From NCBI GenBank assembly GCA_035716045.1, contig DASTKI010000165.1, positions 80 to 64,079 on the forward strand: a DNA stretch of 64,000 nt. Reading direction: 5' to 3'. Both the position numbers and the translations under genes were made by a program. The notes under the pieces are model-generated. The model did no database searches. It was not told where the DNA came from and saw only the letters and a list, made by a program, of their open reading frames with translations. Source of the stretch: Ktedonobacterales bacterium (GTDB lineage Bacteria > Chloroflexota > Ktedonobacteria > Ktedonobacterales > JADMIN01). Below are positions 9,411 through 55,516 of the stretch, piece by piece; position 1 is the first letter of the stretch, and each line of letters starts with the position of its first letter.

Positions 9411-12300
9411 ATTGTCCCTCGCGTGTCTCCACGCTGGCCGGCCGCTCGCCGCCGAGCGCCTCGCCCATGATTCTCGCCTGCTCCGCCGCGTGCGCATCGG
9501 GCAGGCCCTCCGCCGTGCTCGCTCGCTCGGGCCGGCCCACATAACGCAGCGTTACGCCCGCCGGCAATTGCGCCGCCAGCCGCGGCGCGATATAGTTCCA
9601 CGCCGCCATGTTGCGCGGCTCCTCTTGCAGCCAGACCACCTCGCCCAGATGCGGATAGCGCCGCAGCGTCGCCGCGAGCGCCGCCTCGGGGTATGGGTAC
9701 AGCTGCTCCACCCGCGCCACGGCGACCCACTCGCGCGATTCCGGCTGCCCGGCCATCGCCGCCTCCAGGTCCACCGCCACCTTCCCGCTGCAGAGAATCA
9801 GCCGCCGTACGGCCTCCGGCCGCGCGCGCGCATCATCCAGAACAGGCTGAAACGCCCCTTCAGTCAGGTCGCGCAGGCTCGATCCCGCCTTCGGATGCCG
9901 CAGCAGGCTCTTGGGCGTCATCACGATCAGCGGGCGCGGCGCCACGGCGAGCAGCTTCGCTTGCGCCCGCAGTAGGTGGAAGTACTGCGCCGCCGTCGTG
10001 CAGTTCACCACACGCAGATTGTCCTCAGCCGCCAGCTGCAGATAACGCTCTAGCCGCCCGCTCGAATGCTCCGGCCCCTGTCCCTCGTAGCCATGGGGCA
10101 GCAGCAGAGCAAGTCCTGGTAGCTGCCGCCACTTCGCCCGCGCCGCCGCGATGAATTGATCAATCAGCACCTGCCCGGCATTGGCGAAGTCGCCAAACTG
10201 CGCCTCCCATAGGACCAGCGCGCCTGGCGCGTGGACGCTGTAGCCATACTCGAAGCCCAGCGCCGCCGCCTCCGAGAGCGGGCTATTGTAGATCGCGAAC
10301 GAGGCTCGCGCCTGCGGCAGCGCCTGCAGCGGGATGTAGACCTCGCCCGTCTCGGCATCGTGCAGCGCGTCGTGGCGCTGGCTGAACGTGCCGCGCTCAG
10401 TGTCCTGCCCCGCCAGCCGGATCGGCGTGCCGTCCGCCAGGATCGCCGCGAAGGCCAGCGTCTCGGCAAGGCCCCAGTCAATCCCGCCCGGCTTCTCGAT
10501 CGCCTCGCGCCGTCGCGCCAGCAGCCGCTCCAGCTTGGGATTCGGCGTGAAGCCCTCCGGGCGCGCCAGCAGCGCCTCGTTATAGGCCCGCAGCGCGTCC
10601 GCGGACGCCGCCGTCTCCGCGCTCACCAGCGCGGGCGACTCTTCTAGCGTCGCCTGCTCCTCAGGCACATTCCCCGCCAGCAGCTCGGCGTGCGCCCGCT
10701 TCAACCGCTCCTGCGCCTCGCTCAGCATCGCCTCAGCGTCCTGCGGCGTGGCGACGCCCTCCGCCTCTAATGCCTCCGCGTAGAGCGCCCGCGTGGTCGG
10801 ATGTCCAGCGATGGCGGCGTAAAGGCGCGGCTGCGTGAATGCCGGCTCGTCGCCCTCGTTATGGCCCCAGCGCCGGTAGCCGATCAGATCAACCAGGAAG
10901 TCCTTGTGATAGCGCTGGCGGTAGGCGTGGGCCAGCGCGACCGCGCTGAGGCAGGCCTCGGGATCGTCGGCGTTGACATGGATGATGGGGATCTCGAAGC
11001 CCTTGGCTAGGTCGCTCGCGTAGAGCGTCGAGCGGCCCTGCTCGGCGGCGGTCGTGAAGCCGATCTGGTTGTTGGCGATGATGTGGACGGTTCCACCCGT
11101 CTGATAGCCCGGCAGCCGCGAGAGGTTGAGCGTCTCGGCCACTACCCCCTCGCCGGGGAACGCCGCGTCGCCGTGGATGGTGACGCACAGCGCCTTGTCC
11201 ACGTTCTGCCGCGGCGCGCCGCGCTCGCCGCGCCGCTCCTGCGCCGCCCGCGTGAAGCCCTCCACGACCGGGTTGACGAACTCCAGATGGCTAGGGTTGT
11301 GCGCCAGCGTCAGCGCCACCTGGGCTAGCTCACTCTCGCGCACCGTCCGTCGCGCGCCCAGGTGATACTTCACGTCGCCCGTCCAGCCGTAGTTGATGCC
11401 CGCCGAGCCCTCCGATGGGACCATCTCCTTGTCCGGCGCCGTGTGGAATTCCGAGAAGATCTTCACATACGGCTTGCCCAGGATGTGCGCCAAGACATTC
11501 AGCCGCCCGCGATGCGCCATGCCGATCAGGACCTCGCGCGTCCCGACCTCGGCCGCGTCGTGGATCAGCGCGTCCAGCATCGGGATCAGCGTGTCCGTCC
11601 CTTCGATGGAGAAGCGCTTCTGGCCAACGAATGCGCTGTGCAGGAAGCGTTCGAATGCCTCAACCTCCGCGAGCCGCCGCAGCAATTCGCGCCGCTCGTC
11701 CACCGCCAGCGGCTGGCGGAACACGCCCGATTCGACTGCGTCGTGCAGCCAGCCCCGCTCCTGCTCATCCTGGATGTGGGCGAACTCGTAGCCGAGCGTA
11801 TCGCAGTAGATCGCGCGTAGGCGGTCAATCGCCTCTAGCGCATCGCGCGCGCCGCGCGTATCGCCGCTGGGCCAGACGATGCTCGCGGGCAGCCGCGCCA
11901 GCGCGTCCTCGGTCAGCCCATTCGCTGCCAGGGTGAGCGTCTCTTTCCCTGGCGGCGGCGCACCCAGCGGATCGAGCCGCGCCGCTAGATGCCCGTACTG
12001 CCGGATCATGCGCGCCAGCTTCGCCGCCCCCACGACGACCCGGATCTCCCCATCCGTGACGCCCGCACCCGCCCTGGGCGCGACCGCCACAGGCGCGGCA
12101 GGCGTGGGATACGTGGGTGGCGCGCTCTCCACCGCGACGCTAACACGTGGCGGAGAAGCCGCCCGCTCGAAGAACGCGCGCGTCGTCGCGTCAACTGATG
12201 AGGGGTCTTGCAGGTAGCGCTCGTAGAGCTCCTGCGCATAGCCCGCGTTCGGGCCAAAGAAGGTATCCCAGCCATCCATGGGCGCCAATCCCCATCCCAT
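9400..12300 (-). CDS. sucA: 2-oxoglutarate dehydrogenase E1 component
   Basis: 966 aa. N-terminus [24 protein letters not shown], ThDP-enzyme length and motifs ([21 protein letters not shown]). Overlaps the sucB start by 11 nt. Confidence 0.92.
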
Positions 12301-12666
12301 CCGTCCTCACGCGAGATCGCGCTGTACCATCACGCCGCGCGCCTTCCCGAGCAGGACCATCTTTAACTATACCACCAGCGCCCCATACCGCCTGCCGCTT
12401 CCCTCACAATCGCATAACAAACGGGCGGTATGACTCGGCCTATTTCGCCATCCAGACCGACACCGTCTCTCCACCAGGGCTACCAGGGCGTCACCGCCGC
12501 CACGACCACCATCTACCCGCCCGGAAAAAAGTCAGGACTCGCCTCCTCCGTCAAGCTCACCACCTGAGCCGGAACGATCTACCTGTCACCCATCGTGGCC
12601 AGCGAAAGCAGCCTCTGACTGGCGCCCCGCCCCGTCCGCCACCGCCTTCGTGTCCCAGCCCGCGCA

Positions 12667-12713
12667 GGGGGCTTCGCGGCCGCCAGGCCCTTAGCCACGG
12701 CTTCAGCCGCCCG
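12667..12713 (+). repeat. Family B repeat (gggcttcgcggccgccaggcccttagccacggcttcagccgcccg)
   Basis: Near-identical to the units at 17607-17730. Abuts the stop codon of 12716..15061. Confidence 0.8.
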
Positions 12714-12715
12714 TC

Positions 12716-15061
12716 TCACCACCCAGCCGACAGCGGCGGCGTGATCGTCGCCGCGTCAAGCTCCGCCTGCGTGGGGCGCGCCAGCCCTGGCCCATATTCT
12801 CGCGAGAGCGGCAGGACCACCAGATCGAGGAACAACTCCTTCGCCGTCTCCAGCGTCAGCCCGCCAATCTGTGGCCGCCACCAGCTATGCGTCTCGCGCG
12901 AGACGATCACGCCCGGCGCCACATCCGCCCGCGCGCCCGATGGCAGCGGCGCCACCACCACCGCGCCCTCGCCCGCGACCCAGCTTCCCGGCGCGCAGGT
13001 CGCCCGCGCCGAGAGCGGCTTCCCGCCCGCTCCCTGGAACAGGAAATGGAAGTGATAGAGCGCCACCGCTGGCCCCGGCGGCGCCGAGCGCAGCGCCGCC
13101 CACAGCGTCACCAGCCGCGCCGGCAGCCCGCCGCCCGCTGGCAGGATGAATGCCCGGTCCAGCCGCAGCTCCCCATTCACCACCGCCAGCCCGCTCGCGC
13201 GCGGCCCCTCCGGGTTCGGCGCGACCGCCACTAGTGGATACGTCGCGCCCCGCGCTAGCGCCAGCCTGCCGATCTCGCGCGTCCCCGGCGCGCTCAGCAG
13301 CGCGCGGATCGCCAGCCCCGACCCATCCATCACCAGCGTCGGCGCCGCCCCATCCCCAGCCGGCGGCGTCAGCGCGCAGGCATCCGAGGTATACGCCGTC
13401 CACAGCGGCCCGCCGCCCGCCAGATTGTTTCCCCGCTGCGCCCAGTACAGCCCCATGAAGGGGTCGCCGGGATCGCCCGCCAGGAAAACCTGACGCGCAT
13501 GCAGCGCGACCGCCGCGCGCCCCGTCGCTGCCATCGCTGCCATATAGCTCGTCGTCGGGATTGCCCCCCACGTCGGCGCGGGCGACTCCCCGCTCGCCAG
13601 CGTCAGCGCGAACGCCCCCGTCAGCGCCACCTGCGCCACGATCACCACTCCCGCCACCGCCGCCATCGCCCCACCCGGCGCCGCCCGTCCCAACCTCCCC
13701 AGCCGTCCCAACCGCCCCAACCATGCATGCCATCCCCCCTCTCCTCTCCGGAGAGGGGGCCAGGGGAGGCCCCACACCCACCGCGCCGCCCGCCGCGCCT
13801 GCCCCGGCAGCCCCGCCACAAACGCGCCGACCGCCACATACAGCGGCGGCGTCACCACAAACGCATAGTGGACGTAGATCGGGCTCGCATGCCGCAGCGT
13901 CAGCGCCAGAAACACCGCAGGCGCGCCCACGACCAGCAGCCGCGCCCGCCACACGCGCCACCGCTCCCGCTCGCCTTGGGCCAGTTGAGGCCGCGAGAGA
14001 ATCCCCCAACCCTTCCTCGTCTCTCCCTCTCCCACGGGGAGAGGGGGCCGCCGGGGGGTGAGGTCCCGCAACGGCCGCCCTATCACCATCAGCGCCAGCC
14101 ATCCCAGGCTCAGCGCCACCAGCCCATCGAGCGCCGGCTCCAGCCAGGGCAGCGCCCGCGCCACCGCCGCATACCGCGTATCCGTCCCCAGCCAGTCCCA
14201 TGGTCGCGGCCCTAGCGCCGCGCTGATCTGCTGGACAGCCTGCCCGTCCAGGGCCCGCGGGGTCGCCAGATACGCCAGATAGATCGGCAGGTCATAGCCA
14301 TGGCTGGCCACCTCGAAGAGCGTGGTTGGGATATACAGCGCCAGCGCGCCCGCCACGCCGAGGTAGAAGTCGTACCACGTCACCGCCTCCCAACCCATCG
14401 CCAGACCCACCACGCTCAAAGGCAGTAACGCCGCCGTGATCGGGTGGACCTGGACCGCAGCCGCCATCAGCAGCGCATGGGGGATGAACCAGTGCCGCCG
14501 TCGCTCGACCATCCCCAGATGCAGCGTATAGAGCGCGCCGATGACCAGCGGCAGCACCAGACACTGCTGCCAGATGAACCCGCCCAAGTACGTATCATAG
14601 AGCGCCGTCGCGAACAGCAGCCCGCCCGCCAGCGCCGCCCACCGCCCAAACGCCCGTTCCGTCCAGATATACAGCAGCCCCACCGCCACCACATTCGCCA
14701 TCGCCTGGACCAGCGTCCATCGCTGCGGGTCATTGGCGAAGGGGTACAAGAGCAGCGTGTAGAGCGAAGTGTTCAGCGCCAGCAGCGAGTTATAGATCCC
14801 CGTCCCCGGCAGCAGATGATCGTGCGCCGCCCGCGCCACCTCCAGATACAGCAGCGCGCTATCGCTATAGAACGGCGACCGCCCCAGCCAGGAGAGCCGC
14901 AGGAACGCGCCCACCGCCAGCGTCAGCCAGAACTGCCACTGCCGCGCCCACCCCGGCGTCCGCGCCCCCAGCCATGCCGCCGCGCGCCATCCCCACGCGC
15001 CCCACACCCGCGCCCGCGCCTTCCACGTCACCGCGTCCTTCACCGCCGCCATCGCTTCCAT
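12716..15061 (-). CDS. Polytopic membrane glycosyltransferase (GT39/ArnT-like N-terminal half) with a large extracytoplasmic C-terminal domain
   Basis: 781 aa. The N-terminal half has many TM segments and an early SPFYSDSALLYLEVAR loop typical of PMT_2/ArnT-type GT-C enzymes. It contains two in-frame family A repeat insertions and a GRLGRLGRLGR tract. Confidence 0.65.
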   Translation of the reverse strand: MEAMAAVKDAVTWKARARVWGAWGWRAAAWLGARTPGWARQWQFWLTLAVGAFLRLSWLGRSPFYSDSALLYLEVARAAHDHLLPGTGIYNSLLALNTSLYTLLLYPFANDPQRWTLVQAMANVVAVGLLYIWTERAFGRWAALAGGLLFATALYDTYLGGFIWQQCLVLPLVIGALYTLHLGMVERRRHWFIPHALLMAAAVQVHPITAALLPLSVVGLAMGWEAVTWYDFYLGVAGALALYIPTTLFEVASHGYDLPIYLAYLATPRALDGQAVQQISAALGPRPWDWLGTDTRYAAVARALPWLEPALDGLVALSLGWLALMVIGRPLRDLTPRRPPLPVGEGETRKGWGILSRPQLAQGERERWRVWRARLLVVGAPAVFLALTLRHASPIYVHYAFVVTPPLYVAVGAFVAGLPGQARRAARWVWGLPWPPLRRGEGGWHAWLGRLGRLGRLGRAAPGGAMAAVAGVVIVAQVALTGAFALTLASGESPAPTWGAIPTTSYMAAMAATGRAAVALHARQVFLAGDPGDPFMGLYWAQRGNNLAGGGPLWTAYTSDACALTPPAGDGAAPTLVMDGSGLAIRALLSAPGTREIGRLALARGATYPLVAVAPNPEGPRASGLAVVNGELRLDRAFILPAGGGLPARLVTLWAALRSAPPGPAVALYHFHFLFQGAGGKPLSARATCAPGSWVAGEGAVVVAPLPSGARADVAPGVIVSRETHSWWRPQIGGLTLETAKELFLDLVVLPLSREYGPGLARPTQAELDAATITPPLSAGW
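13734..13775 (+). repeat. Family A repeat, copy 5, in-frame inside CDS 12716..15061
   Basis: cccccctctcctctccggagagggggccaggggaggcccc, translated on the minus strand as ...GLPWPPLRRGEGGWH... Confidence 0.8.
14022..14064 (+). repeat. Family A repeat, copy 6, in-frame inside CDS 12716..15061
   Basis: ctctccctctcccacggggagagggggccgccggggggtgaggtc, translated on the minus strand as ...RDLTPRRPPLPVGEGETRKG... Confidence 0.8.
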
Positions 15062-15291: not shown

Positions 15292-16011
15292 CTAACTGGG
15301 CAGACCGCGCCGATCTCGGTCGCGCTCGCCCTCGCCCCCGCGCGAGCGGTACAGCATCCACAGCAGGTACGCGCCCACCGCGATCAGCGCCACCGGCCAC
15401 AGCATGCCAAGCGCCTGGAGGACACCGACGCCCCCAGGACCGGCCAGGATAGCCAGCGCGACGACCAGCAGGATGCCACCGGGAATAGACGGCCACCAGT
15501 GGAAATGCCCCTCCGCCATCTGCGACAGCGGCATGATCGCCAGGAAGCCCAGCGCCAGGCCCAGCACGACGATCCCGCCGCGCGCTTCACCATTCGCCGT
15601 CACGAGCAGCGTCTGCTGCGCGAGCGTGCCCAAACCCAGGCCAGTCAAGATGCCGCCAGGAATCATTAGCCCACCGCTGCGCTGCAGGTAGCCCCATACG
15701 ATGAACATCACACCTAGCACGGGTAGCACGAGTGTTCCGATCAGCGCCGAGTTCCAGATGTTCGCCGCCAGCGCCATCAGGCCGAGCACGACGAGCATTG
15801 CGCCCCAAACGCCCCGGTCTATGTTCTTGCGCCGCCGCTCCGCTTCGGCCCTGGCCGCCGCCTCAGGCTGGGTGGTCTCAGGCCTGGCTACCTCAGGCTG
15901 GGCCGCCTCAATCCGCGGCGTGGGCTGAGCCGTCTCAGGTTGAGCCGCCTCAGGCTGGATCACCGGAGCCTGCGCCGCCTGGAGCCGTGTTTCTTCGTCT
16001 TGCCCTAACAT
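15292..16011 (-). CDS. Membrane protein with an N-terminal AQPE-type repeat region
   Basis: ORF 15292..16089, probably starting at MLGQDEE (ATG 16011). Repeats AAQPETAQPTPRIEAAQPEVARPETTQPEAA are followed by about 6 TM segments. Confidence 0.55.
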   Translation of the reverse strand: MLGQDEETRLQAAQAPVIQPEAAQPETAQPTPRIEAAQPEVARPETTQPEAAARAEAERRRKNIDRGVWGAMLVVLGLMALAANIWNSALIGTLVLPVLGVMFIVWGYLQRSGGLMIPGGILTGLGLGTLAQQTLLVTANGEARGGIVVLGLALGFLAIMPLSQMAEGHFHWWPSIPGGILLVVALAILAGPGGVGVLQALGMLWPVALIAVGAYLLWMLYRSRGGEGERDRDRRGLPS

Positions 16012-17877: not shown

Positions 17878-19626
17878 ATGACCCAGACCACTACAGCCAC
17901 CGACACAGCTGGACAGAATCGCGGCTCGCTCTCCTGGAGCTACGTCAGCGGCGTCAGCGATACACCTCTGCTCGGCGTCACCATCGGCGACCTCTTCGAC
18001 GCCACCGTCGCCCGCTTCCCCGACCGCGAGGCCCTCATCTCACGCCACCAGGATCTCCGCTATACCTGGCGCGAGCTACAGGACGAAGTCAACCGCTGCG
18101 CTCGCGGCCTCCTGGCCATCGGCGTCAAGAAGGGCGACCGCGTCGGCATCTGGGCCCCTAACCGCGCCGAGTGGGCCATCACCCAGTTCGCCACCGCCAA
18201 GATCGGCGCGATCCTCGTCAACATCAACCCCGCCTATCGCCTCCACGAGCTCGAATACGCTCTCAACCAGTCTGGCTGCTCCACCCTCGTCTTCTCCCCC
18301 ATGTTCCGCACGACCAACTATACCGAGATGGTCATGACTCTCTGCCCGGAGCTCAACTCCTGCGCCCCCGGCCAGCTCGACAGCCACCGCATCCCCCACC
18401 TGCGCCACGTCATTCGCATGGGGACCGAGCGCGCCCCCGGCATGTGGGTCTGGGGCGAGATCCTGGAGCGCTCCAAAGAGATCAGCTCCGCCATCCTCGC
18501 CGAGCGCCAGGCCGAGCAGGAGTTCGACGACCCGATCAACATTCAGTACACCAGCGGCACCACTGGCAACCCCAAAGGCGCGACGCTGAGCCACCACAAC
18601 ATCCTCAACAACGGCTACTTCGTCGCCCGCCTGCAAGAATTCACCGAGAACGACCGCCTCTGCATCCCCGTCCCCCTCTATCACTGCTTCGGCATGGTCA
18701 TGGGCAACCTCGGCTGCGCCACCCACGGCGCCACCATGATCTATCCCGCCGAGGCCTTCGAGCCCGCCGCCACGCTCGAAGCCGTTCAGGCCGAGCGCTG
18801 CACCTCGCTCTACGGCGTGCCCACCATGTTCATCGCCGAGCTGGCCCATCCCGACTTCGAGCAATACGACCTCTCCAGCCTGCGCACCGGCGTCATGGCC
18901 GGCTCGCCCTGCCCTGTTCAGGTCATGCGCCAGGTCATTGACCGCATGAACATGCGCGACGTCGAGATCTGCTACGGCATGACCGAGACTAGCCCCGTCT
19001 CCTTCCAGACCCATACCGACGACCCGCTGGAGAAGCGCGTTGGCACCGTCGGCCAGATTCACCCCCACGTCGAGGTCAAGCTCGTTGACCCCGCCACCGG
19101 CAAGGTCGTCCCGCGCGGCATGCCCGGCGAGCTGCTCACCCGCGGGTACTCCGTCATGATCGGCTACTGGGAGAACGCCGACGCCACCGCCAAGGCCATT
19201 GACGGCGCCCGCTGGATGCACACCGGCGACCTCGCCACCATGGACGCTGACGGCTACGTCAACATCGTCGGCCGCCTCAAGGACATGGTGATTCGCGGCG
19301 GCGAGAACATCTACCCCCGCGAAGTCGAGGAGTTCCTCTACACCAACCCCAAGATCAGCGACGTGCAGGTCATCGGCGTCCCCGACGCCCGCTACGGCGA
19401 GGAGTTGATGGCCTGGGTCAAGCTGAAGGACGGCGAAGTCGCCACCACCGAGGAGCTGCAAGACTTCTGCCGCGGCCAGATCGCCACCTACAAGATCCCG
19501 CGCTACTGGAAGTTCGTTGACGGCTTCCCGATGACCGTCACCGGCAAGATCCAGAAGTTCCTCATGCGCCAGCAAGCCATCGAGGAGCTCGGCCTCCAGC
19601 ACGCCGCCACCATCCAGACCGCCTGA
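17878..19626 (+). CDS. AMP-dependent acyl-CoA synthetase/ligase
   Basis: 582 aa. AMP-binding signature [20 protein letters not shown], plus [21 protein letters not shown] and a C-terminal GKIQKF. RBS gggaggtg. Confidence 0.9.
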
Positions 19627-44578: not shown

Positions 44579-44719
44579 CTAGTGGCTGAATCTCACCGCG
44601 TCGGTGTTGCCGCCGCAGATGATGACGCCGACGCGCTCGCCCGGCGCCGACTGGTACTTGCCGGAGAGGAGGGCGGCGATGCCGCCTTTGCCGTTTAGAT
44701 GCGTTGGCGCTAGAACTGG
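44579..44719 (-). pseudogene. Displaced remnant of a threonine-dehydratase 3' end (attR-like copy)
   Basis: Own translation ...NGKGGIAALLSGKYQSAPGERVGVIICGGNTDAVRFSH* compared with the intact gene end ...GGATAFAALLSGKYQPAPGERVGVIICGGNTDAVAFHH*. 54 nt are identical (caccgcgtcggtgttgccgccgcagatgatgacgccgacgcgctcgcccggcgc). Confidence 0.75.
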
Positions 44720-44803
44720 CATAGCGCGGGCTCATTGCGGCGCCGCCTCGCATGATATGCTATACCCATCGTTCCCGCCATCCGCATCGAGGAGAGAAAC
44801 GCG

Positions 44804-45034
44804 ATGGGCGCACTGCCAGACCGCATCGTCATAGATCCCGCGATCAATCATGGCAAACCCGTCATTCGCGGCCTGCGCTATCCAGTCGAGACATTGCTCG
44901 AACTGTTGAGCGCTGGTATGACGATTGACGACATCCTCGCGGACTATGAAGACCTAGAACGTGAAGATGTGCTTGCCGCGCTGGCCTTCGCCGCGCGCCT
45001 CACACATATCCAACGTATAGAATCCATCGCATGA
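44804..45034 (+). CDS. DUF433-family antitoxin-like protein
   Basis: IDPAINHGKPVIRGLRYPVETLLELLSAGMTIDDILADYEDLEREDVLAALAFA is the canonical DUF433 pattern. Confidence 0.85.
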   Translation: MGALPDRIVIDPAINHGKPVIRGLRYPVETLLELLSAGMTIDDILADYEDLEREDVLAALAFAARLTHIQRIESIA

Positions 45035-45047
45035 TTGGCTCGGTGGC

Positions 45048-45401
45048 ATGAGGTTTCTGGTGGATGCGCAACTGCCTCGCCGGATCGTCTATCGCATGCG
45101 CGAGACGGGCCACGATGCGTTGCATACACTGGACCTGCCGCATGGGAACCGTACGCCTGATGCGGAGATCATCGCGATTGCTTCGCGTGATGATCGTATT
45201 GTCGCAACAAAAGACGCCGACTTCGTGAACTCGTTTGTGCTGCTGCGCCAACCACCCCGCTTGCTCTTGATCTCCACTGGCAACATCAAGAACGCTGATC
45301 TGGAAACACTACTGCTATCACAGATGGCGAACATTGAGGCCGCATTCACCACATGCGATTTCGTCGAGCTGACCCGCCAGGCGCTTGTCCTGCGCGCGTG
45401 A
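45048..45401 (+). CDS. DUF5615-family PIN-like putative toxin
   Basis: MRFLVDAQLPRRIVYRMRETGHDALH...DAEIIAIASRDDRIVATKDADF. Starts 14 nt after the DUF433 gene, the usual two-gene arrangement. Confidence 0.85.
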   Translation: MRFLVDAQLPRRIVYRMRETGHDALHTLDLPHGNRTPDAEIIAIASRDDRIVATKDADFVNSFVLLRQPPRLLLISTGNIKNADLETLLLSQMANIEAAFTTCDFVELTRQALVLRA

Positions 45402-45450
45402 GCACGCGCCTATTTGATAGAGCCCTGGCCTTCGGCCCGAACAACGCCGC

Positions 45451-46395
45451 TCAGTGGTGGAAGGCCACCGCGTCGGTGTTGCCGCCGCAGATGATGACGC
45501 CGACGCGCTCGCCCGGCGCTGGCTGGTATTTGCCGGAGAGGAGGGCGGCGAAAGCCGTCGCGCCGCCTGGCTCGGCCACCAACCGCAGCGCCTTCCACAG
45601 CGCCTCTTGCGCCGCACGGATGTCGTCGTCACTCACCAGCGTCACGCCAGAGACATACTCTTGCGCCAGTGGGAACATCAGCGAGCCGACCTGGCGCGGG
45701 GCCAGTGAGTCGGCGGCGATGCTGCCGGTGGGCGCGTCCACCGGATGGCCCGCCTCCAGCGCGTTGTAGAGCGTCGGCGCGCCCTCCGGCTCGACGCCAA
45801 CAACCTTCACCGCGCCGCGATACCACGCCGCGACGCCGCCGATCAGCCCACCGCCGCCAACCGCCACGAGTAGCGTATCAATCGCGCCGTCCTGCTCCTG
45901 CAGCTCGCGGCCCAGCGTCCCCTGGCCCAGCAGCGTCTCCACCTGCTCGAAGGGATGCACAGGGAGCGCGCCGCTGCGCACGCGGAACTCCTCGCTGGCG
46001 GCGTGCGCGTCAGCAAAGCGCTCGCCCGTCACGACCAGCTCCGCGCCCAGTTCGCGGATGCGCGCGATCTTGGCCGGCGAGGAGATGGTAGGAACGAAGA
46101 TCGTCGCCGGGACGCCGAGCCGTTGCGCGGCGAACGCCACCGCCACACCGTGATTGCCGCCCGACGCCGCCACCACGCCCGCCTCGGGAATATCACGCAG
46201 CAGCAGATTGGCGAAAGCCCCGCGCGCCTTAAACGAGCCCGCGTGCTGCAGCAACTCCAGCTTCACCGCCAGCGGCCCGGCGGGCAGGCCGAAGTCCTGG
46301 CCATCCACCGCGATGAGCGGCGTGCGGCGGATGTAGGGGGCGATGCGCTCGTGGGCCTCCGCGATGTGCTCCGGCGCGATCGGCGATTCGGTCAT
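45451..46395 (-). CDS. Threonine/serine dehydratase (PLP-dependent, fold type II)
   Basis: PLP-lysine motif LQHAGSFKARGA, glycine loop ASGGNHG, 314 aa. Confidence 0.85.
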   Translation of the reverse strand: MTESPIAPEHIAEAHERIAPYIRRTPLIAVDGQDFGLPAGPLAVKLELLQHAGSFKARGAFANLLLRDIPEAGVVAASGGNHGVAVAFAAQRLGVPATIFVPTISSPAKIARIRELGAELVVTGERFADAHAASEEFRVRSGALPVHPFEQVETLLGQGTLGRELQEQDGAIDTLLVAVGGGGLIGGVAAWYRGAVKVVGVEPEGAPTLYNALEAGHPVDAPTGSIAADSLAPRQVGSLMFPLAQEYVSGVTLVSDDDIRAAQEALWKALRLVAEPGGATAFAALLSGKYQPAPGERVGVIICGGNTDAVAFHH

Positions 46396-48354: not shown

Positions 48355-48666
48355 GCGCCGCCACCCCGCTCTCGTCGCGTACGGCCACTGGTCCACATGG
48401 ATTCGCACATCCAGTATACGCCAGCCCGCCGACGCATGAGCGACCCGCGCCTACCAGACCGGTGAGGGACAGAAGGGCCAGCCCGCTTGGGCCGGGCGCT
48501 TGACGCCGCGCGCGTTTGCTTGCATGATGCGTCATATGCTCATCAATCAGCGCGCGCTCGCTTGCCACGAACGGCGTCTCATGGCGTGGGCGCCAGCTGG
48601 ACACGCAGCCCCTCGCGAGTAAGGCGCTATGCGGGTGGGGGAAACAAGACGAGGAGGCGCCACCGC

Positions 48667-49281
48667 ATGCTGGACATCACGACCTTTACCCGGACACCCT
48701 TTCACGTGCTCTATCTCGTGCGCCACGGGCAATACCAGCGCGCGTTCTCGCCGCCCGAGACACCCGACGGCCCGCTGACCGAGCTGGGCGCGGCGCAGGC
48801 CGAGCTGACTGGGCGGCGCCTCGCGCGGCTGCCCATCTGCGTCATCCACCACAGCACCCTCATCCGCGCGCGCCAAACAGCCGAGATCATCGCCCAATAC
48901 TTCCCGGATGTCGAGTTACGTCCTTCGCCGTTGCTGCGCGAGTGCCTGCCCACCGTCCCGCCCGCCTACATCCCCTACCTGGAGGGCGCCTCACCCGCCG
49001 ACTTCGCCCAGGGCGACCGCCAGGCGCGCGAGGTCTATCGCAAGTGGTTCAAGCCGCCCGCAGCGGACGCGACCGAATCCACGCGCGAGATCGTCGTCTC
49101 CAGCGGCAACCTCATCAGCTACCTCGTCGCGCGCACGCTCGGCGCCACCGGCAAGCAGTGGGTCGCCACCAGCATTCAGCACTGCGGCGTCACCGAAGTC
49201 GCGCTCGGCGGCCCGCGCAAGACGCTGCTTCTGCGCCACAGCGACACCGGCCACCTGCCCCCCTACCTCCAGACCATCTGA
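48667..49281 (+). CDS. Histidine phosphatase family protein (PGAM-like); its 3' end is the island integration site
   Basis: Trimmed to MLDITTFTRTPFHVLYLVRHGQY (RHG motif), plus LTELGAAQA and HHSTLIRARQTA. Ends ...LLLRHSDTGHLPPYLQTI*. Confidence 0.75.
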   Translation: MLDITTFTRTPFHVLYLVRHGQYQRAFSPPETPDGPLTELGAAQAELTGRRLARLPICVIHHSTLIRARQTAEIIAQYFPDVELRPSPLLRECLPTVPPAYIPYLEGASPADFAQGDRQAREVYRKWFKPPAADATESTREIVVSSGNLISYLVARTLGATGKQWVATSIQHCGVTEVALGGPRKTLLLRHSDTGHLPPYLQTI

Positions 49282-49424
49282 TGGGAGATGCGCTAGCCAT
49301 ACGTCATCCGCAACGCTCCTGCGCGCATGCCTGCTAATTCTTCGTCATAATAGAAATGTCTCATCGCATAACTTGACTCTTTGCAGCGATAAGTTGTAAA
49401 CTTCCAGCGGTATTCTGCTCCCGT

Positions 49425-49453
49425 GTGACAGAGTATGCTCTACTATATATAGT
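49425..49453 (+). promoter_or_regulatory. Candidate sigma-70-type promoter for the island plus-strand gene pair
   Basis: GTGACA (49425-49430), 17-nt spacer, TATAGT (49448-49453), in an AT-rich stretch about 200 nt upstream of ATG 49653. Confidence 0.3.
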
Positions 49454-49652
49454 GCGGCCAGGTTCAGTATGACACCAATTCAATGAGGAGGGAGAATTGA
49501 TGTAGATCGGGCGTCCCCCGCCTCAATGAGCCCGCGTTCACGCTCCCACTCGCAAACGCTCCTGAGGCAGTCCCCGCTGGACAACCTCATGCGCCACCCA
49601 ACGGACAGATGTACGAAACGATACGCCCGCAACAACGAAGGAGGGGCTCATC

Positions 49653-50885
49653 ATGGTCAATAATCCACCACGCGCAGCCCGCGCAGCCCAGCAGCCCGGC
49701 GCTGTAACGATAGGAATCGAATTATCCGCCACACACAAGCGCATCTGCGCCCTACCCGTTGGAGCCGAGCCGAATAAAGACGAGTCCAACATTGAGAAGC
49801 GGCTTAAATTCCTCGACAGTAAAGCTGACCCCTGGGCTTCGCCCCCATTTGCGCCTCTCGGGAGTCTCATTCCCCGGCAAACGACAGAGGTTATCCAGTT
49901 TGTCAACGCCTTTATCAAGACCAGCAATATCAACCCAGATGACGTCACCGGCGTGGGTGTGGCCATCGTCGCCAGCTTCGCACCACACACGGGCATCGCG
50001 AGCGTCACCCGAGCGAGCGATCTCGAGCAGCAACTATCCACCATTTTCAAGAAGGCCACCCGCGTGCGGTGCTTCAACCGGTCCCAAATCTCTTGCTTGC
50101 TGGAGCGCGGCCAAGGAATGGCGGCGGGCCTACGAAATGACGACATGGTCTACATTACTGTCAGCAACAACATCAATCTCGGCGTCATTCAACAGGACGC
50201 GCGCGGCGATGGATGGAATTGGGGCAACGCGGGCGGCATCCCCCATATCCCTTTGACGCAGAACCGGCTCACTGACGTAGCGAGTCGAATGAACCCGCCG
50301 CTCGAATTGGCCCTCCCCAAGGAGGTATGCCCTGTTTGCGGTGAACTGCTCTGCCTGACCAACCTCGCCTCTGGCCGCGCCATCGTCACCGCCGCCCGGC
50401 GCGCGATCTCCGGGGCCACGCCCACGAAGATCATTGACATGATGCGGGCAAGACCGAACTCCGCGCACGCCCAGATCATTCCACCTGATTCGGGTGGAAG
50501 TGTCGCGATTTCTCCAGCCATCCAGGGTGTGACCTCGATAGATACGCGCGCGGTCATCGAAGCAGCGGAAGATCAGGATCCTATCGCGCTCCAGATCATT
50601 CGCCAAGCCGGGCTGGCCCTGGGGCTCGTCATAGCGCTTCGGGTCATTCCGAGCTTCAACCCATTCATCGTTACATTGGGCAGCGCTGGGGCCAGAAGTG
50701 ACACCCTGCTCGATGTGGTCAGACAGGTCGCGGTCAGTGTACAGGGCGGCTTGATCCGACATCCCACCGGCGGCGCGAATGTGGCCGTCAATTTCCTCCC
50801 GACGGCGTTCCCCGGCTATACGGGCCTGCTTGGCGCCGCCTGGTGCATCCAGGCGATGAGCGACGAGGAGATACCCTTGTTCTGA
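49653..50885 (+). CDS. ROK/ASKHA-superfamily protein with degenerate phosphate-binding motifs
   Basis: RBS gaaggagggg. ROK-type zinc motif CPVCGELLCLTNLASGRAI, GNAGGIPHIPL (compare GxAGEIGH) and adenosine-motif-like FIVTLGSAGA. However, phosphate-1 is IGIELSATH (not DxGGT) and phosphate-2 is ITVSNNINLGV (not GTGIGGG). Confidence 0.65.
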   Translation: MVNNPPRAARAAQQPGAVTIGIELSATHKRICALPVGAEPNKDESNIEKRLKFLDSKADPWASPPFAPLGSLIPRQTTEVIQFVNAFIKTSNINPDDVTGVGVAIVASFAPHTGIASVTRASDLEQQLSTIFKKATRVRCFNRSQISCLLERGQGMAAGLRNDDMVYITVSNNINLGVIQQDARGDGWNWGNAGGIPHIPLTQNRLTDVASRMNPPLELALPKEVCPVCGELLCLTNLASGRAIVTAARRAISGATPTKIIDMMRARPNSAHAQIIPPDSGGSVAISPAIQGVTSIDTRAVIEAAEDQDPIALQIIRQAGLALGLVIALRVIPSFNPFIVTLGSAGARSDTLLDVVRQVAVSVQGGLIRHPTGGANVAVNFLPTAFPGYTGLLGAAWCIQAMSDEEIPLF

Positions 50886-50897
50886 TCCGGACGCGCA

Positions 50898-53174
50898 GTG
50901 GCGTGTGAGGGCGAGACGATCGCGGCTCCCGCCGCCGCGCGGCATATCCAGCTTGCCATCCCCTATCGTTTATTGCTAGTGAGCGATTGGTTACAGCGAA
51001 TGACACGATATGCGCTCCTCGCGGCATGCGCTGGCGCTCAGAGCGCGCCATCTGAGCGCCGATTGAGGTTTGCGGAATCTGATATCACCGAACTGCTGCT
51101 GCCATGGTTGCTTGAGGACCCCGCATGGAGAGACGGCGGAGACATAGCCCTGTGCGGAGTGAGCGCGCCAACGACGGCGACAAGTGGCGTCAGGCAGATC
51201 GCTGATCGCCATTTCCTCGCCGAATTGAAGCGAATCGTGTCGCACGCGGAGGATGACGACTTCGTTCTCATCTACTTCTCTGGACACGCAGTCTTGCGCG
51301 AGATCCGCGGCGTTGAGAAGACCTGCCTGGAGTTTCCATCCACTTGGGTCCCGATTGATGAGGTTCGCAACACCTGTCGAGAGAATATGCGCGGCGCCGC
51401 TATCCTCTTAACGCTTGATTGCTGTTATCCCATATCCGGCGATGCAGAGCCGGAGAAATCCCGTCTCTCCAGGATCATATCCGCATTGGGCTCACTCATT
51501 CAGGAAGCGGACATCGAGAGAGCCAATAGCCACCACTCAGGTTCGCTCGTATATATTGGCGCCTGTTTGCCTGGCCAGGAGTCCTTCGAATCGAATCGCG
51601 AGCAAAGCGGCTACTTTCTGAGCGCGTTCATCAGAGGTTGCGACGGAGGCGGCGAGTCACTTCCCTCCGTGGATGGCGGTGTGGTGACAACCGGCAGTCT
51701 CATCCAGTTCATTCAATGTGACCTGAGAGGCTGGCAGATTCCCGTCGCGTACAGCGCAGACCCATTGGGACTTCGACTGAAGGAGCTCAGCGCGTGGCAA
51801 GGGCCACGACACGACTGGAACGGGCCATCACATCCAATCATGCTGAACAGCGAGCGGTGCAGCAGACTCGGGCGGAAACTGATGGCGCGTTCGGAATTCG
51901 TGGTCAAGTCCAGTGCGCAGCCAAAGTGGTCCACCAGTCAGTTTCTCAGCACGCGTGACCTGTTTGTGCAAAGCTGCGCATCTGTTTTACCCCCATTGGG
52001 CGCCCGGCTAACGTTGGAGGTAGGCTTCACCAATCAGACGCTCACGTTCGTTGAACAGTGTCCCGCGCATCTCAATCCTGTGGAAGCGGAAAAAGGCCCA
52101 CGCTATCTCGTCGAGAGCAAGCCGCCAGTAGTCATGGCGGAGGGCGCATACAACATCTCGCTCACGGAGCACAAGAATCATGGCCATAATGAACAACTCT
52201 TGGTTCTGTCCCAACATACACCGCAACCAACCCTGTATGTGTATCGCGGCTTGAAGACAACCTTGGCTATTGATGATCGCGCCCCACGAAAGCTGGGACC
52301 AGGCACGAGTTCCGCGCTCCATCCGGCGTCTGGCAGAGTATTCGCCCTCGATTCGGGGGGCGCCCTCACCGTGTGGCCACTCGAACAGTCAGAACGAGCC
52401 GCGCCTGTCTCGTGGGCAGGGCATCAAGCGTCGTGGATGGCGCTGAGCGAAAATGCGTTTGCGGTGGCGGCGGACGGTGATTCCGTGTATTTTTGGAGAC
52501 TGAACTCGGCCTGGACACAGGAAATCGGTTTGCGCGCTCTCCCCCAGGCGCCCCAGGGCTTGGGACGGATCCAGGCTCTTGCCGCAAAGTCGGAAAAGGC
52601 CGTCAATTCCTGGGCGCCTGGAACTCATGTCGCCGCCGGATTTGGCTTTGGAGCCGTCTCGCAAGGAGCGCTACTCCTGTGGAACACCGAGCCAGGGTCA
52701 AACACACAATTCAGCCCACCGCAACTCGTTGCGACTGAACACCATTCAGTTGACGCCATCGCGTTTTCGGATGATGGCGGGCGGCTGGCCTTTGCCGCGG
52801 GCCCCATCGTGCGCGTGAAACAGCGAGCCAAAACAGGAGATTACGGAAGACGACAAGTCGTGCTGGACATATCAGACTATATAAAGACTCCGCCACCGCC
52901 AGCCGGCGCGCCCCAATTAGCGATAACTCGTCTCGCATTCTCGCCGAGGATATTTGCGGGATCCGTGCTGGCGATTGGAACGAATTATGGTGATGTGCTG
53001 CTGTGGGAATATCGAAGGCACAGACCCCCTGTATCGCTACCCAGCGACCGCGCCCTCGTTCAGGACCTCTCGATAGAGGCATGGAACCGTTATGAGGCGC
53101 GCCTCATCGTGAGAGGCGCCAAGAGCGTGGAAGTCTGGGCGCTGGCCACGCAGAGAGTAGCACGTGTACGATAA
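50898..53174 (+). CDS. Caspase-like (peptidase C14) protease fused to a WD40-like beta-propeller
   Basis: His-Cys dyad contexts FVLIYFSGHA (His codon 51285-51287) and AAILLTLDCCYPISG (Cys codons 51420-51425). p10-like SGYFLSAFIRGCDGG...DGGVVTTGSLIQFIQ. The C-terminus has at least 5 repeats ending in aromatic-W (LTVWPL, VYFWRL, LLLWNT, VLLWEY, VEVWAL). The start is either GTG 50898 or ATG 51000 (MTRYALL). Confidence 0.75.
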   Translation: MACEGETIAAPAAARHIQLAIPYRLLLVSDWLQRMTRYALLAACAGAQSAPSERRLRFAESDITELLLPWLLEDPAWRDGGDIALCGVSAPTTATSGVRQIADRHFLAELKRIVSHAEDDDFVLIYFSGHAVLREIRGVEKTCLEFPSTWVPIDEVRNTCRENMRGAAILLTLDCCYPISGDAEPEKSRLSRIISALGSLIQEADIERANSHHSGSLVYIGACLPGQESFESNREQSGYFLSAFIRGCDGGGESLPSVDGGVVTTGSLIQFIQCDLRGWQIPVAYSADPLGLRLKELSAWQGPRHDWNGPSHPIMLNSERCSRLGRKLMARSEFVVKSSAQPKWSTSQFLSTRDLFVQSCASVLPPLGARLTLEVGFTNQTLTFVEQCPAHLNPVEAEKGPRYLVESKPPVVMAEGAYNISLTEHKNHGHNEQLLVLSQHTPQPTLYVYRGLKTTLAIDDRAPRKLGPGTSSALHPASGRVFALDSGGALTVWPLEQSERAAPVSWAGHQASWMALSENAFAVAADGDSVYFWRLNSAWTQEIGLRALPQAPQGLGRIQALAAKSEKAVNSWAPGTHVAAGFGFGAVSQGALLLWNTEPGSNTQFSPPQLVATEHHSVDAIAFSDDGGRLAFAAGPIVRVKQRAKTGDYGRRQVVLDISDYIKTPPPPAGAPQLAITRLAFSPRIFAGSVLAIGTNYGDVLLWEYRRHRPPVSLPSDRALVQDLSIEAWNRYEARLIVRGAKSVEVWALATQRVARVR

Positions 53175-53236
53175 GCGCTGGCCGTAGGCATCCGCCTAGA
53201 CGAGCCTCGCGGAGGCCCATGCTGATGTGTTGGCGG

Positions 53237-53749
53237 CTACCGCAGGAGGGCCACAAACAACTGCAGCGCTGCGATAACCAGCGAAGCCAGAGAAACGATG
53301 ATACCGAACTTCGCTATGCGCAGCGAAGTTCGTTCCGCTTCCGCATCCCGTTTCTCCAGGTTCACCTCCTGCTTGATCACGAAGAGCTGAATCACGACCG
53401 GATCTGATTGGGCTGGCTCCTTGGTTATTGTTCCATGCGGGTGACGCTCAGCCAGCTTCGCATTGATGTAGTTGGCGATTGTGTCGCTGTCATCGAAAAC
53501 CTTCCCGACCGATTTCTTTGTCGCATCGCCAAGCAGGAGGTTGTCCACAGGCTCGCTGGTCTGGTCGCTCAGCCTTTTCAAGTGCTCATCAATGACGCTG
53601 GCTCGGGCCTTGAGAGATCCTCGGAAATATCGTGCGACAAGAAAAGCGATCGCCGAGACCGTTAAGGAGATGAGGAATAGATACACGGAAAGAAGCTGCG
53701 AAGACAACATATACCCCCCGCCAAGACTCTTGGTTAGCTGGATAATCAT
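53237..53749 (-). CDS. Hypothetical 2-TM membrane protein (terminal TM helices flanking a charged soluble segment)
   Basis: TM1 LLSVYLFLISLTVSAIAFLVA and TM2 FGIIVSLASLVIAALQLFVALL. AT-rich island codon usage. Alternative start at ATG 53710. Confidence 0.5.
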   Translation of the reverse strand: MIIQLTKSLGGGYMLSSQLLSVYLFLISLTVSAIAFLVARYFRGSLKARASVIDEHLKRLSDQTSEPVDNLLLGDATKKSVGKVFDDSDTIANYINAKLAERHPHGTITKEPAQSDPVVIQLFVIKQEVNLEKRDAEAERTSLRIAKFGIIVSLASLVIAALQLFVALLR

Positions 53750-53886
53750 TGCACGCCAGGAATCAATAATGGCGTGCAGAAGTACAAACCAAAGCGATAT
53801 TTCAACGAGGTAATCGCGTCATGGATCTTCTCCGCGAGCCACACGTCTCGCGCGTACCTCACCACATATCTACCGGTTTGCTGAAT

Positions 53887-54306
53887 TCACCTTTCTGTAG
53901 AATTATTGGTATGCCCCACGACCACATCGAGCGCGCCCTGCTCATCAAGCCAGAGCCCGATTACGCTCTCATGTGTGCCCAGCGACACAACCTGCTGAAC
54001 GCAGCGGCGAATTTGAGCAAGATGCTCCGCCTTAGTCGCTGGATTGGCTGAACATGGAGCATGCCCGACAACCGCAACAACTCGTGAGCGATGTGACTTA
54101 GCGCTCTCTTGAAGGCAGGTCTTGACCATAATCCACTCGGGGCTTACTTCTTCTGCGCTGAGTCTCTTGTCTGGTCCAAAGAGAGAGATATTGTCTACAT
54201 AGTCTGCATTGTATTGTTTTCGCATCCAGGTGGAGACTGGTTCCTGCACAAAGCCATCAGAGCAGTTGATCACTGCGACAAATCGTTCTGTTCCCACTGC
54301 GTACAA
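53887..54306 (-). CDS. Hypothetical small protein with CSD...HxxC motif pair (possible beta-carbonic-anhydrase-like zinc site; speculative)
   Basis: 139 aa. VAVINCSDGF and VVGHAPCSA lie about 67 residues apart, reminiscent of the beta-CA CxDxR...HxxC pattern but lacking the Arg. Start is TTG 54306 or GTG 54297. Confidence 0.45.
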   Translation of the reverse strand: MYAVGTERFVAVINCSDGFVQEPVSTWMRKQYNADYVDNISLFGPDKRLSAEEVSPEWIMVKTCLQESAKSHRSRVVAVVGHAPCSANPATKAEHLAQIRRCVQQVVSLGTHESVIGLWLDEQGALDVVVGHTNNSTER

Positions 54307-54360
54307 CTTTCCACTATACAGAGTGCGCGATACGCCAGCAGCGCAAGAATGACAAGAAAG

Positions 54361-54369
54361 AATATAGCA
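54361..54369 (-). promoter_or_regulatory. Candidate extended -10 element (TGcTATATT) for the island minus-strand gene pair
   Basis: Plus-strand aatatagca reverse-complements to tgctatatt, about 55 nt upstream of the ORF start. Confidence 0.3.
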
Positions 54370-54405
54370 TACAGTATTTGAAAGCGCCAGCGCTATGGCA
54401 GGTTA

Positions 54406-54457
54406 TTCTACGTCACAGCGATACTGGCCATCTGCCCCCTACCTCCAGACCATCTGA
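54406..54457 (+). pseudogene. Displaced, frameshifted copy of the histidine-phosphatase 3' end (attR-like)
   Basis: Aligned base by base to 49229-49281: 5 substitutions, all at third codon positions and all G/C to A/T, plus a 1-nt deletion in the C6 tract. The last 27 nt are otherwise identical through the TGA. Confidence 0.8.
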
Positions 54458-54509
54458 GCCGCAAGCCCTTGACGGCTGCTGTGGTCGGTGGCCAGGCGCA
54501 GACCTCATC

Positions 54510-54540
54510 CCCTCGCCTCTCTGCTTGAGAGGCGAGGGGG
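54510..54540. terminator. Perfect 13-bp stem / 5-nt loop hairpin (family A-related), candidate bidirectional terminator
   Basis: cccctcgcctctc tgctt gagaggcgagggg. Lies between the phosphatase 3' remnant and the convergent cupredoxin gene. No U-tract. Confidence 0.5.
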
Positions 54541-54610
54541 CATCAGACAAGCGAACGCTGGGTAGCGAGCGCTCGTAGCTATCAAACTGGCTATCAAACC
54601 GGATGTGGGG

Positions 54611-55051
54611 TCACTTGACCGTGATGCTCATACGCATGCCCGCCTCGTAGTGTCCAGCCTTATGGCAGGCGAACTCGAGCGTTCCCGCTGCGGCCGCCTG
54701 GGTGAATGTGTAGACCCCCGTCTTCAATTGCCCAGGATTCACATCCTCGATTTCGAAGAGGCGCGCCGCGTCTATCTCTTCCTCGGACGCTTGGCCGGTG
54801 GAACTGGGTACCGCCATCAACTCATGCTGCGTCTGACCGCTATTGGTCACGACAAAGCGATAAGGGACCCCAACGGTAAACTCGGTCTGTGACGCTTTAA
54901 TGGCGAAATCAGTGAGAGTGATCTGGACCTCAGTAGCTTGCTTTGTGGGGCTGGGAGCGCCTGAGCTCGGAGTGGTTGTGGTCGCGCCACATGCCGCGAC
55001 AGCAAGCAAGATGAGGAACAGACTACTCGTGAGCAGGAGACGCGCTTTCAT
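54611..55051 (-). CDS. Cupredoxin-like (type-1 copper) lipoprotein
   Basis: Trimmed to MKARLLLTSSLFLILLAVAACG (lipobox). C-terminal copper ligand motif EFACHKAGHYEAGM. RBS ggaggtg. Confidence 0.75.
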   Translation of the reverse strand: MKARLLLTSSLFLILLAVAACGATTTTPSSGAPSPTKQATEVQITLTDFAIKASQTEFTVGVPYRFVVTNSGQTQHELMAVPSSTGQASEEEIDAARLFEIEDVNPGQLKTGVYTFTQAAAAGTLEFACHKAGHYEAGMRMSITVK

Positions 55052-55516
55052 CGTAGCACCTCCGAAAGGCGAAAGGCCGAGAGGAGACATCGCCCCCCCA
55101 GCGTGGTGTCCCACAAAGGCCCCTGATGGGCCAGACGCGGGTAGAGTTGACCTCGACATAGTCCGTTCATCGCGCAGGGAGCTACGGCGGCTCCCTTGAA
55201 GTGACGTAATGGAGCTGGTCACAATATGGCGCCATCGCTCCATAAAGGGGATGCTCGTTGCAGCCGAAGCGCGGCACAGGCGCGCTCGCTCGCAAACAAG
55301 CAGTCTGTACTGCTCACGGACTGGAAATCAGGGACTGCAAATAGTAGCGCCAGAGCGGCATTCGCACGCAGGCGCTGTGCCAAGTGATGCGCAGATAGCG
55401 GGAGCCAGAAATGCGCGGCGCGATTGCGCCAGGACACACTTCTGACTCCCGATTGGTGACGCGCGAGGCTGGCGATCTGGCCAGCGCCAGCGCCATATAG
55501 AGTCTCCAGCGCATCC

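Follow-up and report, generated by a model that had tools for sequence, protein, structure and literature searches.

An apparently foreign spare gene end borders an integrase-less island behind a phosphatase gene of a Ktedonobacterales bacterium

Insertions described at gene ends

The element e14 and phage 21 reportedly reside in the 3' end of the icd gene of E. coli (Hill et al. 1989; Campbell et al. 1992); an integrase is encoded there, and the working icd gene ends in element-derived sequence.

CIMEs, as well as elements of the ICESt1/ICESt3 type at the 3' end of fda, have been reviewed (PMC5704250; PMC7563491), and a CIME is defined by the att sites of the integrase of a cognate ICE or IME (PMC5704250; PMC7563491). 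Nobusato et al. (2000, Gene 259:99) and Furuta, Abe & Kobayashi (2010, PMC2853133) dealt with a further class, insertion with long target duplication, which was described for restriction-modification units and is read as a duplication of the target itself (PMC2853133). In this class, accessory genes form an insert of less than 20 kb between direct repeats of more than 30 bp, mobility genes are lacking, and the site is empty in a related genome; the repeats are of variable length and often span the stop or start codon, so that the target gene survives (PMC2853133).

The locus analyzed here lies in a window of 64,000 nucleotides (the whole stretch of DNA that was studied) on contig C165 of the MAG G000, which is 76% complete and consists of 252 contigs with a total of 3.97 Mb. 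Among the described classes, insertion with long target duplication comes nearest to this locus. The insert measures 5.1 kb, the repeat 52/53 nt, no mobility gene is present and the related genome G002 has an empty site, so that every feature named in the Furuta paper is found here apart from the R and M genes. Unlike the class as described there, half of the distal repeat copy consists of codons of a foreign orthologue and not of target-derived sequence. The island resembles a CIME in having attL/attR-like repeats at the 3' end of a protein gene and no recombination or transfer genes of its own, but no cognate integrase or element was found in the searches reported below, and the targets of comparable insertions are many unrelated genes. 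With e14 and phage 21 it shares a gene-3'-end copy of its own, mainly synonymous differences and a displaced fragment at the far junction; at the phosphatase locus, however, the working end is of the native type and the foreign codons lie in the unused distal copy.

The locus also resembles homology-facilitated illegitimate recombination in that foreign DNA was apparently captured via the homology of one conserved gene with no dedicated recombinase. Under that process, however, the distal copy should be native throughout and the right junction illegitimate. At the phosphatase locus this junction falls within an identical block, and the arm next to it is foreign.

Taken singly, the case adds little beyond the work of Nobusato and Furuta with their colleagues and the icd literature. 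What it brings is a spare gene end beside an integrase-less island that is neither a target duplication nor a decayed native end, but part of another organism's gene, brought in with the cargo. From such a foreign gene-end arm, the direction of insertions of this kind and their history can be read. The case also supports the notion that conserved gene ends can be landing pads for accessory genes via host recombination alone, the cargo being a rare caspase-like/ROK-like pair at this locus and a toxin-antitoxin pair at a second one, at the PALP gene.

The phosphatase gene end, its copy and the island between them

The resident gene (48667..49281, + strand) encodes a histidine phosphatase (His_Phos_1, PF00300, E = 1.6e-20). 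Its open reading frame, 48487-49281, opens at a TTG at 48487, while the ATG at 48667 is the likely start. Gene ends were compared with those of G002, G007 and G009, three species of the same genus as G000. The orthologues in these genomes are 204 aa long, show 86-91% identity, share the same terminal peptide and lie in the conserved order PALP-HisPhos-APH-HisPhos. The PALP and first His_Phos genes are just 35 nt apart in G000, and in G009 a 464-aa membrane transporter-like gene without repeats lies between the two (L030 6287-7681).

The phosphatase gene end is present exactly twice in the 3.97-Mb assembly. Base-by-base reading and a repeat search gave ttctgcgccacagcgacaccggccacctgcccccctacctccagaccatctga for the proximal copy (49229-49281, +), which comprises the native last 17 codons and the stop, and ttctacgtcacagcgatactggccatctgccccctacctccagaccatctga for the distal copy (54406-54457, +). 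The copies mismatch at 49233, 49236, 49245, 49248 and 49254, all of which are third-codon positions (the TGA stop occupies 49279-81). From the proximal to the distal copy ctg becomes cta, cgc becomes cgt, gac becomes gat, acc becomes act and cac becomes cat; every one of the five changes is synonymous and every one goes from G/C to A/T. The final 27 nt are the same in both copies except for the C tract, which is C6 in the proximal and C5 in the distal copy. Similarity ends at the stop codon, beyond which the proximal copy runs on with tgggagat and the distal copy with gccgcaag. Each copy can accordingly be divided into a left arm, located at 54406..54431 (+) in the distal repeat, and a core, which spans 49255..49281 (+) in the gene, contains the 18-mer TACCTCCAGACCATCTGA and recurs one C short, with 26 nt, at 54432..54457 (+).

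The probability that all five mismatches fall on third positions is P = 0.0019 for random sites and P = 0.0065 when only G/C sites are mutable, and the mismatches are unevenly distributed between arm and core (P = 0.023-0.029 for heterogeneity). In frame, the distal left arm still encodes VILRHSDTGHLPP. Homology starts at 54406, or possibly at 54402 given two conservative first-position changes (gtt att vs ctg ctt, V-I vs L-L); with this extension the peptide reads (VI)LRHSDTGHLPP.

An earlier note on this DNA had described five synonymous third-position G/C to A/T differences followed by a 27-nt core with one C missing, and had placed the end of homology exactly at the stop codon. Our re-reading agrees on both points, and no difference was found outside synonymous sites. 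The note began the distal segment too far to the left, at 54378, which is only the TTG of a 66-aa ORF (54378-54578, +) opened by the missing C. This ORF is in the frame of the distal arm, reads through the old stop owing to that missing C and is most likely a chance ORF.

Between the repeats lies an island of 5.1 kb (49282..54405) with a GC content of 0.50-0.63, compared with about 0.70 in the flanks. Its first gene encodes a ROK-family-like protein of 410 aa (49653..50885, +; PF00480, E = 1.9e-16) and is preceded by promoter-like sites at 49373..49453 (+), of which three were found vs 0.2 expected, by consensus match only. It is followed by the gene of a caspase-like/WD40-like protein of 758 aa (50898..53174, +), a weak assignment based on matches to the NF047832 caspase family (5.6e-7), the PF24814 WD40 family and a PADLOC caspase. 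On the opposite strand are the genes of a 170-aa protein (53237..53749, -), for which no match was obtained in Pfam, NCBIfam, PADLOC or PHROGs, and of a 139-aa Pro_CA_2 protein (53887..54306, -; PF20393, E = 1.8e-33), the promoter side of which adjoins the distal repeat.

The 758-aa protein is absent from the other 168 genomes of the order, save for two matches of 28-29%, and had no match at E <= 1e-20 among 400 genomes of the phylum. Its single homologue among 5.8 billion proteins (L027; 44% identity) is also preceded by a ROK gene and is encoded on a short contig with 57% GC. There, the gene pair lies between the C-terminal part of an IS630-type transposase (1-339) and the N-terminal part of an IS21-type one (4842-5132), both identified by eye. 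No phosphatase fragment was found on the contigs of this homologue, and the protein search returned no close homologue of the Pro_CA_2 protein.

Judged by its composition, the island is foreign. The flanking direct repeats bound a segment of foreign composition that is missing from the relatives, as is expected of an att-flanked element. The distance between the phosphatase and multicopper oxidase genes is 0.43 kb in G002, 1.35 kb in G007, 4.6 kb in G009 and 12.1 kb in G000; since this spacing varies so widely across the four genomes, the DNA 3' of the phosphatase gene is evidently a variable hotspot. G002 represents the empty site, without a second gene-end copy.

To the right of the distal repeat, the flank of the island (54458..54545, +) contains a GC-rich hairpin (about 54509-54540) without a T run, as read from the sequence. 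This stretch could not be aligned to the relatives, the downstream DNA of which is also mutually different. The adjoining CopI-like cupredoxin gene (54611-55243, -) has a GC3 of 0.64 and looks foreign, and the right flank of the island may itself have been acquired. Further degenerate copies of the core, as expected under tandem accretion, were not present between the island and the multicopper oxidase gene.

Codon usage and the relatives' sequences indicate which of the two copies is native. The proximal bases at the five variable sites are matched 5/5 by G009 and by G007 and 4/5 by G002. Third-position GC (GC3) amounts to 0.81-0.89 in native genes and 0.51-0.71 in island genes; it is 11/12 in the proximal arm and 5/12 in the distal arm. 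The latter value has a probability of P = 2.7e-4 given a native GC3 of 0.87 and is in keeping with that of the adjoining Pro_CA_2 gene (GC3 0.51). By these measures, the gene-proximal copy is native in type. The distal left arm, in contrast, is a fossil that stems from the end of an orthologue in an AT-richer genome. Its GC3, the relatives' bases at the five sites and the peptide kept in frame show that the arm is foreign and goes with the island.

These results uphold the view of the earlier note that the distal left arm was once coding DNA of an orthologous phosphatase in an AT-richer genome, and also its suggestion that the arm is element-derived, given that the arm shares the low GC3 of the island and the island is absent from the relatives. 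The note had further pointed out that a duplicate in island-free relatives would speak for a local tandem duplication; in these relatives the gene end is single-copy. An icd-type reading of the phosphatase locus, with the native end displaced, was ruled out by codon usage together with the relatives' sequences.

A foreign arm next to a native proximal copy argues against simple target duplication, one-sided illegitimate joining and icd-type displacement alike. The first of these, a local duplication of the gene end at insertion in the manner of a transposon target duplication, with later divergence, would explain why the insert is flanked by direct repeats. Copies made in this way would start out identical, and five clustered, unidirectional and synonymous-only differences are not expected of them; the island-free relatives lack the duplicate as well. 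The repeat search and Pfam revealed neither a transposase nor terminal inverted repeats at the island, and a diverged repeat of 52 nt is not what a transposon leaves as its target-site duplication. We therefore regard a local duplication as hardly credible.

The reused 18-nt site and the search for a recombinase

The G009 genome carries a 2.5-kb insert at the same site, bounded by the exact 18-mer TACCTCCAGACCATCTGA. Its cargo, a YkuD-domain gene, has the phosphatase gene on one side and a degraded fragment of a phosphatase gene on the other (L030, G009:C4:134000-153999, 10874-13418). Among 45 family genomes, the 18-mer was found only in G000 and G009, twice in each, and the corresponding site differs by 2 nt in each of two island-free relatives. 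The phosphatase fragment, located left of the distal 18-mer in G009, was originally about 270 nt long. It has undergone non-synonymous changes, contains a 19-nt palindrome and has a deletion with a TACCTC microhomology at either side. No arm, cargo or attP sequence is shared between the G000 and G009 inserts. Since the fragments differ in length, the homology boundary is variable, unlike that of one attP family. Taken together, the comparison indicates that the 18-nt site is reused, but not by one element family. The YkuD-domain gene is single-copy per genome of the genus and has elsewhere another conserved downstream neighbour, namely in G000, G002, G006, G001, G011 and G012.

No recombinase or transposase was detected among the island ORFs with Pfam, NCBIfam, PADLOC and PHROGs. 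The whole 76%-complete MAG yielded three matches to PF00589 and one to PF00239, none of them on C165. No tRNA or Rfam RNA gene is present at the insertion site, and integration of the dif/Xer type was rejected as the core, inspected by eye, has no dif-like palindromic organization. Neither the core with a C5/C6 tract nor the degenerate pattern HSDTGHLPPYLQTI* had a match in the metagenome contigs scanned, and the scan of genome contigs for the core gave G009 as the sole match.

The earlier note had proposed to look for elements that carry the arm sequence beside an integrase; only the G009 site was found, and it has no integrase. Apart from this insert, the core occurs neither in the rest of the 76%-complete MAG nor in the 45 family genomes. 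The statement in the note that the recombinase is no longer present is correct insofar as none is encoded on the contig, but nothing indicates that the island ever had one. Likewise, its reading of the 27-nt segment as a site-specific crossover core can be followed as to an exchange within the last 27 nt, which we also infer, while the supposed site-specificity was not borne out.

Site-specific integration would involve a tyrosine or serine integrase, since deleted or acting in trans as in the CIME situation, and an attP core equal to the last 18-27 nt of the phosphatase gene. We consider it possible but doubtful. The sharp identical core in direct repeats, its size, which is that of an attB, and its end at the stop codon all suit such an event, as does the occurrence of the same 18-mer around an independent insert in G009 when two island-free relatives are 2 nt off each. 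Moreover, the MAG is incomplete, and integrase-less att-flanked remnants are well documented (PMC5704250). This reading is weakened by the lack of recombinases in the island and on the contig, and by the fact that the four candidates in the MAG would have to serve eight or more such loci at unrelated sequences. The G000 and G009 inserts share neither arm nor cargo and differ in their homology boundaries, and a 770-nt TA cassette and a 630-nt insert are too small ever to have been self-mobile. In addition, the homologous but diverged stretch flanks the core on the side that an integrase would not require.

We give about an even chance to the reading that host homologous recombination joined the island, with the gene-end copy as a portable homology arm. 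The foreign arm and the native proximal copy imply that the incoming DNA would already have had the order 'core - island - arm - core'. Hence a ready-made cassette would have arrived, the right end of which consisted of the last ~17 codons of the phosphatase orthologue of an AT-richer organism. Its form on arrival, either circular or linear with a gene-end copy on each side, and the joining enzyme are matters that we infer. The cassette would then have been joined to the chromosome by a reciprocal exchange, located in the last 27 nt of the resident phosphatase gene. In the first option, a circle would integrate in Campbell fashion by RecA-type recombination, and in the second a linear 'gene end - cargo - gene-end copy' would enter by two ordered crossovers in the same target, a dedicated recombinase being required in neither. 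The resident gene would remain intact, and the distal copy would become a hybrid of the foreign left arm with the native core, stop and downstream DNA.

In accordance with host recombination, the diverged homology is found 5' of the identical block, where recombination in the longest identical stretch would leave it. The 27-nt core could be the site of exchange, or that of a later gene conversion; if it is a conversion tract, it is silent on the position of the exchange, which counts against this reading. So does its length, since 27 nt of identity are at the lower limit for RecA-dependent exchange, which needs about 30 bp in E. coli (as cited in PMC2884548). Furthermore, an identical block of ~25 nt is also of typical attB core size, the use of one 18-nt site in two species looks site-specific, and with a MAG completeness of 76% a trans-acting recombinase could sit on an unbinned replicon.

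Gene-end duplications across the genome and genus

A k-mer scan of the G000 assembly revealed at least seven loci with a second copy of a gene's terminal 50-180 nt, situated 0.6-7.6 kb downstream of the first. The genes concerned are those of the phosphatase, PALP, ileS, an IclR regulator, a membrane protein, a HAD hydrolase and carB, and the cargo between the duplicated ends is of lower GC. The family-library scans covered both islands on C165; for the other five loci ORF translations were inspected by eye, and nothing recombinase-like was seen. Summed over the loci, the mismatches are distributed 18/19/47 over the three codon positions (P = 6e-5; P = 9e-4 without the phosphatase locus). The smallest inserts with this architecture measure 630 nt and 770 nt, the latter being the TA cassette at the PALP gene.

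The PALP (threonine-dehydratase-like) locus (44579..45545, -) is situated 4 kb from the phosphatase locus. The gene end at 45545-45451, corresponding to the last ~32 codons, recurs 870 nt downstream at 44680-44579. The two copies have an identical core of 54 nt and enclose the TA cassette, in which the family scan identified a DUF433/PIN-like (DUF5615) pair (44804-45401). Alignment with the relatives showed that the right arm of the distal copy and the DNA downstream of it match native G009 sequence, while the working PALP gene has the foreign tail AVAFHH*. A single exchange inside the core would be expected to give just such a reciprocal product. The PALP locus thus follows the icd pattern, but without an integrase. 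The only motif common to the phosphatase and PALP cores, the hexamer CATCTG found by eye, is within chance.

In G002 (L032, G002:C87, 5592-7200), a low-GC insert (GC 0.44-0.60) follows the PALP stop codon. It carries the same DUF433 gene and, in the place of the PIN-like toxin, which is missing, a HAD-like hydrolase gene; a distal PALP copy is likewise missing. The DUF433 genes of G002 and G000 show 85% nucleotide identity, like the flanking genes.

At carB, G000 and G009 each have three copies of the gene end, whereas G002 and G007 have two each, and the cargo between the copies differs. Those of G000 are located at 1401-1852, 2508-2687 and 5837-5912 of L058 (G000:C103:1-6000), and those of the relatives in L049, L050 and L051. 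The oldest distal copy has one junction common to three species. In all four species the insertions at the carB end are stacked, which resembles the accretion of CIMEs at one site. The ileS 3'-end copies (about 1078-1149 and 2368-2440 of L059, G000:C97:12500-17000; L052 in G009) enclose the gene of a 370-aa membrane protein; the insert is common to G000 and G009 with 87.8% nucleotide identity, and the duplicated segment extends about 45 nt beyond the stop codon. The insert at the IclR gene is specific to G000; its 32-nt core is the same in both copies and different from all three relatives, suggesting that identical cores reflect recombination or gene conversion and not conservation.

Host homologous recombination is favoured as the route for the phosphatase island because the same architecture recurs at many unrelated sequences in a genome with very few recombinases, because inserts as small as 630-770 nt show it, because the left homology boundaries vary, and because the diverged homology is on that side of the core on which it does not help to rebuild the gene. 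The recurrence of this recombinase-less architecture at no fewer than seven unrelated genes in G000, and in sister species, argues for a homology-driven route.

The other loci also bear on an assembly artefact, in which the assembler would have threaded a segment of a 57%-GC organism into the contig via a shared 27-nt word. The MAG is fragmented into 252 contigs, the core has about the length of an assembler k-mer, and the one-base difference in the C homopolymer could be an error. However, threading of this kind requires a core on either side of the segment, which still presupposes a real element whose ends resemble the phosphatase gene. The same architecture was found in G009, a MAG of 20 contigs, and genomes that were assembled independently again show the structures at ileS and carB. 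An artefact is, in our estimation, very improbable.

Only slightly less remote is homology-facilitated illegitimate recombination, or 'long target duplication', in which a linear donor piece with the 3' part of the gene and the cargo would have made a left crossover in the gene and an illegitimate right join 52 nt before the resident stop, so that the distal copy would be native and have decayed since. Experiments have demonstrated this process (de Vries & Wackernagel 2002 and Prudhomme et al. 2002, cited in PMC2884548), and Furuta et al. 2010 described the repeat class. It would suit genus-like distal copies such as the phosphatase fragment of G009, the stacked carB ends with their variable left boundaries and the ileS copy that continues ~45 nt past the stop. 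At the phosphatase locus, by contrast, the distal arm with its GC3 of 5/12 (P = 2.7e-4) is not native, and under neutral decay one would expect neither that all five changes fall on third positions (P = 0.0065) nor that the 27 nt after them stay untouched (P about 0.02-0.03).

If host recombination is the general route, recombinase-free cassettes of this genus might spread by means of a portable right-hand 3'-end arm and RecA, behind the orthologue in any related genome; we put this forward as a tentative proposal. The downstream DNA of the target would then be irrelevant to placement. Each passage would update the arm nearest the stop to the current host, its far part being a fossil of earlier hosts, and the phosphatase locus shows a gradient as described by this proposal. 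Since some crossovers would make the arm the working gene end, the arm would be under purifying selection, which would account for the synonymous-only differences. With its recurrence at seven or more loci and the stacking at carB in four species, the pattern may be a main route of gene gain in the lineage.

Two further repeat structures were noted in G000. On contig C9, a 53-nt repeat of the 3' half of a tRNA (15690-15742 and 18922-18974) surrounds a 3.2-kb island that encodes an HNH-like protein (motif identified by eye) and has no integrase-sized ORF. On contig C47, a perfect 83-nt direct repeat (8755-8837 and 11126-11208) surrounds a lower-GC segment of 2.3 kb with two genes. The latter repeat comprises intergenic DNA together with the initial 15 nt of a gene and is thus a 5'-end counterpart of the gene-end duplications.
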